Under the pieces are notes generated by a model. The model did not search any database. It saw only the letters and a list, made by a program, of their open reading frames with translations, and was not told the origin of the DNA. Positions 1-63,480 of a stretch of DNA of 64,000 nt are shown here, piece by piece. Location: assembly GCA_003971905.1 (NCBI GenBank), contig RSEE01000079.1, positions 62,001 through 126,000 on the forward strand, in the 5' to 3' direction. This stretch comes from Moniliella sp. 'wahieum'. Taxonomy: Eukaryota. How positions within the stretch are numbered: position 1 is the stretch's first letter; every line of letters begins with the position of its first letter. The translations under genes were made by a program, and so were the position numbers.

Positions 1-473
1 AACACGTGCCAATGTACTAGTGACGCGTGACCGCGTGACGCCCAAACCGCCATCAGTACTCAGTGCGCCAGCCATCGGCACATCGACACAGCAACGCTCT
101 GTGCAACTACCATCTCTCGAACAGCTTCCTTGACGCAGGGCTTCGGGCGTAGCAATGAGCGCAAGGAAACCGGGTGTAACCTCTATGGGGACCTTCGTGT
201 GGGAGATACGTGCCAAGCTAGTACGAGTCAAAGAGATCAAAATCAACGTGGGCAAGCAAGCGCAACCGCAAGAGCTTTCAGAATGACCGCATGCTGCTCT
301 CTCCCTTTCGGTGCTGTCTATCATGACATCCGTCAGATAGCTTGCGGCGACAAAGCTGAAGGAAAGAACCCATCTGTCACCCGTCGTGCCACGAGGCCGC
401 TCGACAGATGAAGAGACCCGGGATTGGAAGCGGGGATGGGAGATGCTGCAAGCGGGATGGGGTCATCATCAAT

Positions 474-1446
474 TTACGAGCGGCGCTTGAGGTTGTTCGA
501 GAGCCATTCCAGACCCTCGTACAGACCATCACCCGAAGTGGCGCAAGCAGCCTGGATGTACCACTGGCGGTTGCGCAGAGAGTGCAGACCCAGCTTGTCG
601 GTGATCTCGGCCGCATTCATCGCGTTGGGAAGATCCTGCTTGTTGGCATACACGAGCAGCAGCGCATCGCGCAATTCGTCCTCGTTGAGCATGCGTTGCA
701 GTTCCTCCCGTACCTCCGAAATACGCTGCCGGTCGTTGGAGTCCACCACAAAAATGATTCCCTGCGTGTTCTGGTAGTAGTGGCGCCACAGAGGACGAAT
801 TTTGTCCTGTCCACCCACATCCCAGACAGTGAAGGAGATGTTCTTGTATTCGACCGTTTCGACGTTAAAGCCAATCGTCGGGATTGTCGTCACAATCTCA
901 CCCAGCTTGAGCTTGTACAGAATAGTCGTCTTACCAGCCGCGTCAAGACCGACCATAAGGATACCTGAGATGAAAAAGGAGAGAAAGAATCGCACTGTGT
1001 CAGACCAACTCCATGCCATGGCATCGCCATGTCTTTCCTCCCTTGTCCGCCTTGCTTCATCCAACTGCGCCCACACAGAAAGTCCCATAATCACAGAATG
1101 TGCACAGCATCCTCCGCGCCGCCGATAGACAGATCACCTTGCTTCACCTCTTTGCCTGAGGGGTGGGGATAATGGCAGATCACCACCTCACCTTCCAGGC
1201 ATGGACGAGAAGACGGACCTCAGATGATCGCTGTAGGTGGCATACGCTCGGCGTTGGCCCGAAGCGCAGCATGAAGAGCGAGGGAGAGGTGCTCCGGGAG
1301 GGGGAGGGTAAACGAAGCGTACCCCCCAAAAACGTGTGGGACAGGAGGGGCAATGCAGACGGAGGAGGAAAGGGGGGGGGGGGGTACGCACGCATTTCCT
1401 TCTTGCCGAAGAGGCCGCTGAGAAGCTTGGAGACCGAAAGACCCAT
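474..1446 (-). CDS. ARF1: ADP-ribosylation factor 1 (2 exons: 1446-1392 and 964-474; intron 965-1391)
   Basis: Splicing GTGCGT...CTGAC...CTCAG gives [32 protein letters not shown]...[16 protein letters not shown]...NKQD, the canonical Arf1 with myristoylation Gly2. Confidence 0.97.
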
Positions 1447-2131
1447 GATGACCGAGGGGGGTAAATGGAGGGGAGGGCGGGAGGCAGCGACGGAGAGAGA
1501 AGAGGCCGGAGCGGAGCAGAATGGAGAGCGGAGAAGGGGGCGCAGGCAGCGGGCCGGGCTGAATTGAAGGGGCGGCGCGACGCGTGGGGCGGAAGCAGGT
1601 GGTGGTGGGGGCGCGGCGCTGCTGCCTGCCTGGCGGACTGGCGTCTGCGAACCAATTGGGCTCTGGCCAGCCTGGGCGCCCAGGAGCGCACTGCGCTAGG
1701 GTTGGTCCAGCGCCGGACCACGCGGCACTGGCCTCCTGCCTTCCGGAGCCCCAGCAGCCCGCCTGTGTGCCCCGCCTCCTCTCCTCCTGTGCCTGGGCGC
1801 GCTGGCAGGCTCAACGTACACGTTCAACGTGCAATGTTCAATGTTCCATGTGCTGCAGTCGCCGAGGGAGCGCACGCAGGATGCCAGCGCTCACGCGCTC
1901 ACAGCGGATCCAGCCTTCAACCAGTTCACACCTCGAACAGATGGGCCGCACTTCATCTAGGAGACGACTGAGGCGATGACTGCAGCTATCCTAAATGATA
2001 CAAAAATGAAGCCCTTGTGTTCTGATATAAATAGAAACAGGACGGATGAGGAAAAGGGAACAGAACGCCCGTTGCTATTGCTGATAAACAATGCGAGAAA
2101 ACTGCCAGGCTCTAACGCGAAAGACGAGGGA

Positions 2132-60692: not shown

Positions 60693-62005
60693 AAGCGTTT
60701 GTGGTCCACCTCATTGGACCTCTGTTCTACAGCTTTTCGATTCGTTTATTTCATGTTTCATGTTTTCTGTTTCTTGTTTTCTGTTTTCTGTTTCTGTTAT
60801 CATCTCATGTCTATCTCGTACAGCTTGTTCTTCCACTTCTCATTGTTGTATCCTCCCCACAATCGGCGGTTTCTTCAAACCCGTTCTCCCTTGGCATCCG
60901 ACATACATCAGGGTTCAAAGGTTTTATACTACGCGTATATTATACACACATTTTCTGGTTCTTCCTTGAAGTTGTATGGTTGTTCGATGAGACCCCTCTC
61001 AGGTCTCTATCCTTCCACAGTGTACCATGTCAGCCTCCTCTTCTACAACGTAATAGGCTTGCTATAGGCCCCATCATTGCATTATTAGCTGGATATCGTG
61101 CGGATTCTTCGTACTCCGGGTTGGCAATTGTTTTCTAGGAACAGCGTTTCCTTATCCCAGCCATGATCTCTTCTGTAAGAGATATGAATGCCCCAGCCAA
61201 CTCCTGTAAAGGAACAGGAAAAAAACTTCTTCCAATCCTCCGTGGCTCTCGGCTGCAGCCTTCCATGGTATCGTACCCATCACAAGCGCACTATAGATGC
61301 CACGACCTCCTCTCCGCTTCACTGCATCGCGGTGAGACCTCTGGGCGTATAGCGTACATCAGTTGTAGCTACGCGGTGCCTGGTGTAGCCAAAGGTTGCG
61401 TAGGCACCGCCGCTTTTGGACCGTATAGTGACGCGTGACATGTCTTTTTTGTGGAAAGCGTTCCAGACGTGGGAACGGGGAGATTACTATAGATCAGGAA
61501 CTGTGTGGAGGGCAGTAGAGTCGCCACAAAGAAGACCGTTCCTGGGCGCCGGTCAACAAGGAACCAAACAGACAAAGAGCGGGGCACCAGCGACGCTCCT
61601 CCTTCCCACGGAGACGAAGCGTGGGGAAGAACAGAAAATATAATACCCAGAGGCAAGAAAGGGCCGCTGTCTCGCAGCCAAGGATACATAGGGCCCATAC
61701 CCGTTCGGGTCATTAAGGTCATAGATCGAATGAATGTGAATAACGCGTTGAACGGACTTTTTAAAACAAGCGTGTCCCCACATCAACGAGGTGTCAGTTG
61801 TGACTCTCGTTCGCGCTGGAGTCTCTGAGAGACAAGGAGAAGAAGAGACAGCCTAGGGTCTCGTAACTGACAGTACACTAAACCTCCGGTATACCTGTCA
61901 GGCGCAGTATGTAGACAGGCCTGCTCGGCCTCAGTTACTAGTGCGCGCTGACGCGCTGGCGGGGCAACTTACTATTCTATGTGCGTGCAACGATAAGATT
62001 GAGGT

Positions 62006-63480
62006 TAAACGTACGTTAAACGTTGAACGTTACACGTTAATCGAGTTAATCGATAAATCGATCGATAATCGATAATCGATAGTCGGGGACATGGTGACAT
62101 GCGTCACCGGCCACCCCGTCCCATGTCGCACGTCCCACAGTGTATACCCTGTCACATGTGTCACACACCCAGCCTCTCAGGAAGGTATAGGAACTCCAGC
62201 ACCCCAACTACAAACACCGCTACCCCACGCCCCGCCCGCCCCACCCTGCCCCGCCGCTTCAGCTACGTCTGTTGCCCACAATGAGTACGAGTACTGAGTT
62301 ATAGTCGCCACAAACAGTCCAGCTTCCAACGTTTAACGAACGACGTACAACGTACCAATCGCGGCCAACAGATCCTGTGTGCATCAGATTCATCAGATCC
62401 CACAAAAGCACGCGTCACGCGTCACGCGTCACGCACGCGAAAGCGTCACATGTCACATATGTCACCGGTGTATGTGCACATGTGTTGTTCAACATGTCAA
62501 CACGACGGGCATCGACAAAATTTCTGCCTCCAAGCGCGACGGGCCTCGCACCTGTGTGAGAAGTATGTCAACAGCTGGCCAAGTCCTGCAGGACTGATGT
62601 ACTGATACTGGAGTATACTTATTACCTGAGTATATAGAGGCGGCTGAGGACCTTCCTGTTTTACGATACCGCGCAGAGTACTACTCCGAAGTACGAGTCT
62701 TACTCTCCAAGTGCTCGATGCTCTCACTCTTACGTGCGTTCTAGAGATACCCCGTACATTATCGAAACCCTACACCATAACCCGCAGGCCGCATCACACT
62801 CTACAACGTCACATACACCAACAGCAAGTACACCAAACGGCCCTACGTAGTAGGTATAGCATAGAGAAGAATAGCCGCTCTCTCTTCTCCACCCCGTGCT
62901 GCTAATCGTTCCATAGTGTTTACCGTTTACCGTTTACTGATCACCAGTCTTACAGCGCATTGCGCACAGCTAGCTCTGCACTGTGGTAGTTGAGTGTATC
63001 GAAAGGTTAAACGTTGAACGGATTAAACAGGGGAGTTGCTCCGACATGAGATTTACGTTGGGGGATTGGCCTTATAGAGCTTAGACATTAGAGGGCTTAG
63101 AGCTTGGGATTTAATATTAGGTCGTAGAAGGCCTTAGGGCTTAGACTTAGGACTTAGGCCCTTGGAGAGAGACACTTCAGGGGGGGTGATGCAGGCGATG
63201 CTGGTAGTAATGGGTAATACCCCTAGGGAGACCTCCACACCTCGATCAGCAAACCAGAGGGGGGGCAGCTATGGTGGACAGATGTAGGTTCTCGTTCCCT
63301 TAAGTGCGGAGGTCATTTTTTCGCGAGAGGGGACGCTGCGGACGACGGATTAAACGATGAACTTATTGCTCTGATCGGCAATTTACACAGTAGTGACTAT
63401 ATAGTGGCCGGTGACCGTGACCAAAGAAGTGTGGGAGGCGAGTGGAAGTGGTGGGGATGAAGCTTGAACTTGAAGCTTGA
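62006..63480. repeat. Dense cluster of 7-bp-period (TNA+palindrome) arrays
   Basis: ACGT then TCGA arrays at 62006-62082, (CGCG-TCA)3 at 62411, TCA-CATG-TCA-CATATG-TCA-CCGG at 62446, TTA arrays at 63080-63160 and AGCT at 63458. Confidence 0.9.

Follow-up and report, generated by a model that had tools for sequence, protein, structure and literature searches.

Excision through hairpins on the flanking DNA, with footprints made by end joining, is described for hAT, Transib, RAG1 and a MULE (Mutator-like element) in the sections cited from PMC5499845, and palindromic P-nucleotide footprints, with involvement of the Artemis relative Pso2, for Ac/Ds in Candida and yeast in those cited from PMC5873905. 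The text of PMC12730594 gives target duplications of 7 base pairs (bp) for two basidiomycete elements, hAT7 of the rusts and Kyakuja of Agaricomycotina, and of 3 bp for PIF/Harbinger. According to the text of PMC4168063, the target motifs of transposons are generally palindromic, and the target consensus of Galileo is the 7-bp palindrome GTANTAC. Here we describe a family of short arrays in a 64,000-nucleotide stretch of Moniliella sp. 'wahieum' (contig RSEE01000079.1, positions 62,001 to 126,000 of the forward strand; the whole stretch is called the window, and all positions are counted within it). In these arrays the trinucleotide TNA, N being any base, alternates with a 4-bp palindromic core at a period of 7 bp. 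We read them tentatively, at a likelihood that falls a little short of probable, as repair scars that a cut-and-paste element with a 7-bp target duplication left behind and that grew afterwards through repeat hits and slippage.

A strict locus was defined as TNA, a 4-bp palindrome and TNA with identical N on both sides, and the window contains 80 such loci with 90 such 10-mers. As control, 100 dinucleotide shuffles were made in 500-bp blocks, giving a mean of 2.27 and a maximum of 8 for the same 10-mer. The enrichment that an earlier, sequence-only reading of this DNA had proposed for the arrays was thus borne out, and 24 of the 26 positions given there lie within 7 bp of a strict locus. At 15217 and 62017 the proposed order of TNA, core and TNA was found, but the N are unequal, TTA-GCGC-TCA in the former case and TAA, TGA and TAC around ACGT in the latter. 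Period 7 accounts for 63 of the exact tandem runs with two or more units, where the shuffles gave 4.75 on average and 11 at most; period 6 accounts for 75, period 8 for 13 and period 9 for 11. In 33 of the 63 period-7 arrays the unit is made up of a palindrome of 6 bp and one extra base (shuffle mean 0.52, maximum 3), and 32 of these 33 are of the form A-N4-T (shuffle mean 0.05, maximum 1), the sole exception being CAGCTG+C at 47085. The autocorrelation of TNA peaks at lag 7, with 252 pairs against 112 expected, and is raised 1.41-fold at lag 14 and 1.25-fold at lag 21, as had been predicted; the accompanying idea that three units, 21 bp, correspond to about two helical turns gained no support past these multiples of 7 bp.

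The anchor is specific. For the remaining 15 flanks of the type XNY, 2-18 occurrences were observed against 1.7-5.9 expected, the higher counts including other registers of the ATCGAT+C/G arrays. With A at position 3 of the motif, 96 cases were counted when T preceded (0.35 expected) and 18 when another base did (0.9 expected), and no enrichment was detected with C, G or T at this position; the motif requires A and strongly favours T as its first base. The base N is C or G in 75% of the motifs, matching the background of 69% at all TNA sites in the window. Thirteen of the 16 possible 4-bp palindromes are present as cores (the sequence-only reading had counted at least 12), with AGCT found 16 times and AATT, ATAT and TGCA absent. 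We agree with that reading that the arrays are not independent slippage microsatellites; period, TNA anchor and palindromy are set by a single process.

The commonest form of the motif is an asymmetric 12-mer, T-N-A-r-s-s'-r'-T-N-A-r-s, in which primed letters stand for complementary bases. A minimal example is TCA-GTAC-TCA-GT at 53-64, where the period is broken by the base preceding the run. Exact period-7 runs at the 80 loci were 10 bp long at 6 loci, 11 at 8, 12 at 23, 13 at 11, 14 at 8, 15 at 6, 16 at 3 and 17 at 2; none was 18 bp long, and the longer runs measured 19 bp at 5 loci, 20 at 3, 21 at 2, and 22, 26 and 28 bp at one locus each. The peaks at 12, 19 and 26 bp follow the rule 5+7k. 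When the reach of the 7-bp period past the TNA-core-TNA block was recorded on each side, the pair of extensions was (0,2) or (2,0) at 24 of the 80 loci, (0,0) at 7, (0,1) at 8, (0,3) at 6 and (2,2) at 3. A 10-mer with chance extension would be expected to give about 56% of (0,0), and the counts of (1,2) and (2,2) are those of the 12-mer plus chance matches. Runs of 12 bases make up 21 of the 43 left-T-anchored runs, 10 on the plus and 11 on the minus strand, and at single-core loci the two orientations of the asymmetric form are equally frequent (10 and 11). Array ends lie at fixed phases, not at arbitrary ones. The classes of 12, 19 and 26 bp stand in the ratio 56 : 11 : 2, near the prediction for independent re-hits with about 10% of sites hit.

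Two further features of the 12-mer bear on its origin. T-N-A-r-s is repeated at an offset of 7 bp, so that a direct target duplication is retained as in the generic footprint of flank-hairpin excision, and the pattern of 5-mer, two bases and 5-mer was found 185 times against 6.3 expected. The core is r-s-s'-r', with r-s recurring after the second TNA, which corresponds to the loopless P-nucleotide junction of such footprints. Across the TNA pair, N is identical in 90 cases, complementary in 9 and otherwise related in 12; N is copied directly, without complementing. Pure iterated snap-back synthesis, one of the processes suggested by the sequence-only reading, predicts a complemented N and is not supported by these counts.

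The spacing of TNA pairs allows different cut geometries to be compared. For a spacer of 4 nucleotides (nt), 159 pairs were observed against 39 expected, and the spacer is palindromic in 90 against 2.5 expected, an even-centred palindrome as would arise from a flush hairpin at the border of an element. Palindromic spacers of 2 nt were found 4 times (8.9 expected) and of 6 nt 3 times (0.6 expected), and 8-nt spacers 43 times (42 expected); the enriched geometry is the 4-nt even palindromic spacer only. Since the palindromic 2-nt spacer is depleted, a symmetric 5-bp duplication is rejected. An asymmetric 5-bp duplication with 2 P nucleotides is rejected as well, because the P nucleotides come nearly all from the r-s side, at 96 positions against 12 from the T-N side, of which 7 are also in the palindromic class. 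A 9-bp duplication was ruled out on spacer counts, and two 5-mers joined by 3 P nucleotides, with period 8, are not enriched (5 against 2.6 expected). The hAT-type odd-centred palindrome with one complemented centre base was at chance level, r-x-r' being present in 15 of 66 sites of TNA, 3 nt and TNA. Scars of a PIF/Harbinger-type 3-bp duplication, that is, TNA directly repeated without spacer, were barely enriched (52 against 38.6), with N again 75% C or G. A class with hairpin opening at an offset of 1 nt amounted to 7 positions at 3 loci against 24, not above the 25% expected by chance. The other predicted scar classes comprised one case of compound cores (TCA-GATC-TCA-CGCG-TCA at 22196-22215, two cores on one common TNA and the sole compound case found), two of two adjacent 4-bp palindromes and three of a 6-bp palindromic spacer. 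As a separate observation, TNA pairs spaced by 3 nt (period 6) show a mild excess, 66 against 39, with a TNA autocorrelation of 1.49-fold at lag 6 and without the palindromic signature, examples being the TGA-ACT-TGA motifs at 35625, 46077 and 63465.

The loci are distributed unevenly along the window. As a coding mask, length of open reading frames (ORFs) combined with G+C content by codon position failed to separate coding from non-coding DNA and was replaced by codon log-odds trained on 8 ORFs, 6 with a significant Pfam match and 2 adjoining ones assumed to belong to the same genes. This codon-usage mask covers 31.6% of the window, is crude and probably under-calls exons. Within it lie 2 of the 80 loci, both single-core, against about 25 expected for a uniform distribution; the earlier reading had noticed no multi-unit arrays inside coding exons. 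Genes are flanked by loci on their 5' and 3' sides alike. The hit fraction, defined as loci divided by loci plus free TNA sites, ranges among segments from 1.1% at 4142-13625 to 12.2% at 35226-38927, and targeting is therefore regional and not set by sequence content alone. The segment 35226-38927 is the hottest of the non-coding-like ones, with 21 loci (5.7 per kb) and a hit fraction of about 12%, followed by 20454-25786 (17 loci, 3.2 per kb, 8.6%) and 45163-48327 (9 loci, 2.8 per kb, 8.4%). The cold non-coding-like segment at 4142-13625 has 6 loci in 9.5 kb and 525 free TNA sites, and may represent a compartment of its own in chromatin or age. This segment has about 50% G+C and is practically without tandem arrays. 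Pfam scans covered 75 ORFs, namely 15 of at least 250 amino acids and 60 picked by hand, including 34 of the 45 listed for 4.7-13.6 kb; no Pfam match was obtained in these 34 ORFs of the cold segment.

One-off variants of the perfect 10-mer were counted as well. They exceed expectation throughout the motif, to a broadly similar degree per site. The excess is about 12 per site for the two outer bases (T and A), about 8 for the inner pair (A and T), about 7 at the free base N and about 4-5 at core positions, all small counts. In total, the variants are close in number to the perfect copies (excess 72 against 87). This spectrum, a weak test, looks like that expected of steady birth and neutral decay. 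At 22089-22270, TCA anchors are separated by non-palindromic spacers of 4 to 13 nt, including TCA-TACG-TCA and TCA-CACG-TCA; this run could be one of decayed or atypical scars.

The excision reading starts from what is directly seen, namely the 12-mer form and the lengths of 5+7k, an N that is copied directly, a motif that requires T and A, a spacer restricted to even palindromes of 4 nt, and loci clustered in some non-coding segments. Both the element and the sequence of steps are inferred from this pattern. An element or a transposase-like nuclease would cut its target with a 7-bp stagger centred on T-N-A, so that p-q-T-N-A-r-s is duplicated around the insert. At excision, the two flanks would be sealed as flush hairpins exactly at the border of the element, in the geometry of Transib and RAG and not in the one-base-offset geometry of hAT. 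A host nuclease would then open the hairpins 2-3 nt off the tip, leaving 4-nt self-complementary 3' overhangs, r-s-s'-r' and q'-p'-p-q; an offset of 3 would give the identical product because T and A pair together, and an offset of 4-5 would account for the minor class with complementary N. Once one strand has been ligated over the break and the remaining overhang cut back, P nucleotides would have replaced the two outer bases of one copy, and the product p-q-T-N-A-r-s-s'-r'-T-N-A-r-s would be the observed 12-mer after an arbitrary p-q, 7 bp longer than the original site. The symmetric outcome would yield the 12-mer in its opposite orientation. A second hit on the TNA of a scar would meet a target that is already palindromic; the two overhangs would then be cohesive and repair would add one perfect unit, leading to 19 and then 26 bp. 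Finally, arrays would also be enlarged and homogenized by slippage or unequal exchange, a step that the sequence shows in part. The suggestion of the sequence-only reading that hairpin-resolved breaks of the hAT/RAG type write the arrays is favoured by the 12-mer, the lengths of 5+7k and the direct N; its classical hAT version is not, the odd-centred class being at chance.

Several points weigh against excision scars. A search for identical direct repeats of 7, 5, 3 or 8 bp enclosing inverted termini with at least 10 of 12 or at least 12 of 14 matches gave only arrays pairing with each other or weak chance pairs, and no terminal-inverted-repeat structure flanked by such repeats was detected in the window. 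The repeats of at least 28 bp comprise low-complexity and array families only, with no dispersed repeat family in the window, and a transposase domain was not recognized by Pfam in any of the 75 ORFs. No element of matching target-duplication length was seen within the 64 kb. The scars are unusually uniform, with about 3 loci for the 1-nt offset and 2 cases of the product keeping both overhangs, and for comparison 28 different footprints in 128 events are recorded for Ac/Ds in Candida in the sections cited from PMC5873905; this point is weak because the pattern search is blind to irregular scars. The best-studied of the related fungal elements with 7-bp duplications, hAT7, would be expected to leave the odd-centred palindrome with a complemented base, the class found at chance. 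Core usage is uneven, all-A/T cores being found 3 times against 16.5 expected and TGCA 0 times against 5.3 (chi-square 45, 15 degrees of freedom); this is not predicted by the scar model, which needs an added target or repair preference. In addition, slippage also acts, as seen in the 21-bp copy at 22651-22690 and the 8.5 units at 45744, so that growth alone is no proof of repeat hits.

A process without a mobile element deserves comparison. The sequence-only reading had listed a nuclease or topoisomerase acting at TNA-N4-TNA, an option we consider unlikely, and we judge in the same way its broader version, in which a host enzyme introduces the staggered breaks at TNA where chromatin is accessible, and the 7-bp gain is written during repair by fill-in and hairpin or turn-around synthesis. 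The enzyme could be a topoisomerase-like one, a domesticated transposase or some other nuclease. A site-selective break would be enough for the T/A specificity and for the clustering by region, and the 64 kb present no element. However, a 7-nt stagger followed by fill-in gives an exact 14-bp tandem duplication, the (2,2) class, seen at just 3 of the 80 loci, and loopless palindromic junctions normally require a covalently closed hairpin, known from transposase and RAG reactions in the sections cited from PMC5499845; a direct duplication together with P nucleotides from a single break requires added assumptions. A related and distinctly unlikely possibility is that a sequence-independent palindrome writer acts at T-N-A where chromatin is accessible, either an otherwise undescribed break-repair route or a nuclease of the host that forms hairpins, such as a domesticated transposase. 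It would write 7-bp units whose palindromic core is free, and would keep supplying fresh hexamer palindromes and heptamer repeats beside genes.

Growth of hairpin-prone microsatellites, in which slippage or snap-back priming favours self-folding heptamers and the grammar is a filter on chance repeats, appears to us a rather doubtful origin for the arrays. It agrees with the slippage just mentioned, with the depletion of all-A/T cores, which is to be expected if pairing must be stable, and with the predicted folding of the arrays as TNA-looped hairpins. Since the commonest form, the 12-mer, is shorter than two units, however, slippage cannot create it, and the quantized lengths and fixed end phases differ from the birth at two or more units, smooth length spectrum and arbitrary end phase of slippage microsatellites, to which slippage contributes in later growth. 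A stability filter also leaves TNA unexplained (ANT 2, CNG 4 and GNC 5 against 2.1, 5.9 and 5.6 expected), other spacers are without palindromic bias, the longest arrays are non-palindromic, and the hairpins predicted by single-strand folding of 5 arrays are weak, with -4 to -10 kcal/mol and z-scores from -0.95 to -1.74. Functional cis-elements, with promoter arrays kept by selection for a dimeric or structure-sensing factor that reads TNA spacing and dyad symmetry, would account for the concentration of loci in some gene-flanking segments and their near absence from coding-like DNA, and yet we regard them as very improbable. As the core varies over 13 of the 16 palindromes, its base-specific recognition is impossible. 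The alternative put forward earlier, a factor that reads symmetry and spacing, gains no support from the one-off variants, which are spread over T, A, N and core at similar rates and look like neutral decay, although this is a weak test. The asymmetric 12-mer is not what selection would predict, and loci are present on the 3' as well as the 5' side of genes. An artefact of assembly, amplification or base calling has a negligible chance of producing 80 loci with 13 different cores, exclusion from coding-like DNA, a steady-state variant spectrum and an exact internal logic, and no known artefact yields such a pattern.

The individual arrays were catalogued from the list of exact period-7 arrays and from the run lengths. 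The period-7 list includes AACGTT+T at 4414-4428 (15 bp) and AACGTT+C at 43185-43198 (14 bp); ATCGAT+G at 4588-4604 (17 bp), 23296-23312 (17 bp) and 35585-35604 (20 bp); ATCGAT+C at 22988-23008 (21 bp) and 45462-45480 (19 bp); AGTACT+G at 37385-37399 (15 bp) and AGTACT+C at 37859-37874 (16 bp); ACCGGT+G at 24957-24970 (14 bp); and ACATGT+C at 37109-37122 (14 bp). Cores of AGCT are found in the same list in AAGCTT+C at 22478-22505, with 28 bp and 4 units the longest palindromic array, in interrupted AAGCTT+C arrays at 37768-37821, in two runs of AAGCTT+G at 46152-46180 and in AAGCTT+A at 50906-50920 (15 bp), and cores of CGCG in ACGCGT+T at 50379-50397 (19 bp), ACGCGT+C at 55361-55375 (15 bp) and ACGCGT+C (26 bp) together with ACATGT+C (14 bp) at 62409-62458. 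It also holds AGGCCT+T at 37924-37975, an exact array of 22 bp plus degenerate units. The array of ATTAAT+G at 37513-37532 (20 bp), taken from this list and the core usage, has a rare all-A/T core. The run lengths gave AGATCT+T at 14831-14849, AGGCCT+T at 36806-36824 and ACCGGT+G at 46061-46079, each of 19 bp or 5+14, and both sources gave two loci of AGATCT+G at 36643-36671 and two of AAGCTT+G at 63458-63482.

More complex arrangements were also observed. At 22651-22709, AGATCT+C arrays include one unit with a C-to-T variant and form a 21-bp higher-order repeat (22651-22690, period 21, 1.9 copies, 100% match), followed by an inverted TGA-GATC-TGA. The region 62006-62081 has ACGT cores with unequal N (TAA, TGA, TAC) and then TCGA cores with TAA, including 21 bp of exact ATCGAT+A. 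Altered flanks around an AGCT core are seen in AAGCTG+C and CAGCTG+C at 47048-47107, the latter being the only palindromic array of the C..G type. Non-palindromic period-7 arrays with a GATC core are located at 43523-43590, first CAA+GATC with 4 units and then AAA+GATC, or TCA+AAGA, with 5 units. The longest period-7 array of all, CAA+GGCC at 45744-45803 (8.5 units, 60 bp), carries CNA instead of TNA, and its uniform units indicate growth by slippage. Inverted pairs of same-core arrays 220-1290 bp apart were tried as possible ends of an element; label permutation gave 43 pairs against 34.8 expected (P = 0.09), and 18 against 12.4 (P = 0.09) for inverted pairs with complementary N, and the idea was dropped.

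Repeats of other kinds are also present. Perfect or near-perfect tandem repeats unrelated to the heptamers lie at 22883-22927 (18 bp x 2.5), 50818-50859 (12 bp x 3.5) and 46735-46799 (33 bp x 2). GGATCC, a hexamer palindrome in tandem without a spacer base, is repeated 4.3 times at 27811-27836, and a 9-bp repeat 7.6 times at 27430-27497, both among long open frames without a family match. Longer composite palindromes of TGAAC/GTTCA pieces recur at 17204-17231, 35620-35647 and 43189-43216 and form one family in the search for repeats of at least 28 bp. Homopolymer tracts comprise a G-rich one of 39 nt at 19215-19253, 21 G at 47718-47738 and about 12 C at 42762-42773, and some such tracts are distant inverted repeats of each other (42753-42773 with 47836-47856).

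The genes in the window are split by introns, and G+C is 52-64% in most 2-kb bins. Long ORFs with Mon2/Sec7-like domains at 31.8-34.6 kb, UDP-glucose pyrophosphorylase at 44031-44801 and a C2/SMP-domain protein at 50.9-54.2 kb, all on the minus strand, were recognized by Pfam, which also matched an exon of ribosomal protein S17e and, weakly, a tetraspanin. The pyrophosphorylase ORF is nearest to proteins of Ustilaginomycotina, the top named match being Tilletiaria anomala with 84% identity and one nameless protein reaching 92%, and we regard the fungus as related to the smuts of this group. A tRNA gene of 94 nt, probably intron-bearing, was found by Rfam at 15512-15605 on the minus strand (43.9 bits) and was not reported by ARAGORN. 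Heptamer loci are found close by, several of them no more than 800 bp away (14782-15302, 15669). Nothing that the tRNA and Rfam searches detected has any relation to the arrays.

If the arrays are excision scars, one mutational process has marked up to about one-eighth of the TNA sites in some gene-flanking segments, at a per-site rate that a rough estimate, not a computed one, would place at or above that of point substitution. It would be a large source of insertions and deletions in these fungi that has so far gone uncounted, and would explain how tandem repeats and perfect 6-bp palindromes, the raw material for regulatory sites, arise near genes. The scars would also be a fossil record of element activity, chromatin preference and the host hairpin-opening offset that could be read genome-wide without experiment. 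Target duplications, flank hairpins and P nucleotides are known ingredients. In open-licence papers and preprints we found no description of a T-N-A-centred 7-bp even-palindrome scar or of its seeding of heptamer arrays and hexamer palindromes, and none of the pattern in fungi. To our knowledge, surveys of microsatellites in fungi go no further than hexanucleotide units, and heptamers would for this reason have been overlooked.

Among the described systems, ordinary micro- and minisatellites share with the arrays the tandem units and some growth by slippage, but here a common anchor and symmetry, fixed end phases and a minimal form below two units are observed. The target motif of PIF/Harbinger is TNA or TWA. 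The T-N-A is thus held in common, but the period in the window is 7 and not 3, and N is mostly C or G, like the background. Galileo of the P superfamily likewise has an odd 7-bp duplication, palindromic around a free centre base (text of PMC4168063). Its consensus is fixed with an A-N-T centre, in contrast to the T-N-A centre with four free outer positions found here, where palindromy is made at the junction instead of pre-existing in the target, as the rarity of (2,2) loci shows.

Closest in duplication length and phylum are hAT7 of the rusts and Kyakuja of Agaricomycotina, with the same 7 bp, hAT7 being a member of a superfamily that excises via flank hairpins (text of PMC12730594). The text of that report does not record either element from Ustilaginomycotina ('Ustilagin' occurs 0 times), nor do the text and the searched parts of its supplement give a target consensus, the supplement containing consensus sequences and no list of hAT7 target duplications. 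The classical hAT footprint is odd-centred with a duplication of 8 bp, or 7 bp in hAT7, and differs from the scars in the window, in which N is uncomplemented. Transib and RAG nick exactly at the border of the element. They share with the scars the even-centred geometry of flush hairpins, and differ in a duplication of 5 bp. We found no report, in open-licence papers and preprints, of excision scars that build up to a large share of sites. Footprints of flank-hairpin transposons (hAT, Transib and Mutator-like) and the P nucleotides of V(D)J coding joints likewise show retained target duplications, short palindromic additions copied from the terminal bases of the flank itself, often with one flank as the source, and end joining, as far as described in the sections cited from PMC5873905 and PMC5499845. 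Compared with these, the scars in the window have an even-centred palindrome, an unchanged centre base and a 7-bp duplication placed on TNA, and are far more uniform, occupying up to 12% of TNA sites in some segments and extending into multi-unit arrays.

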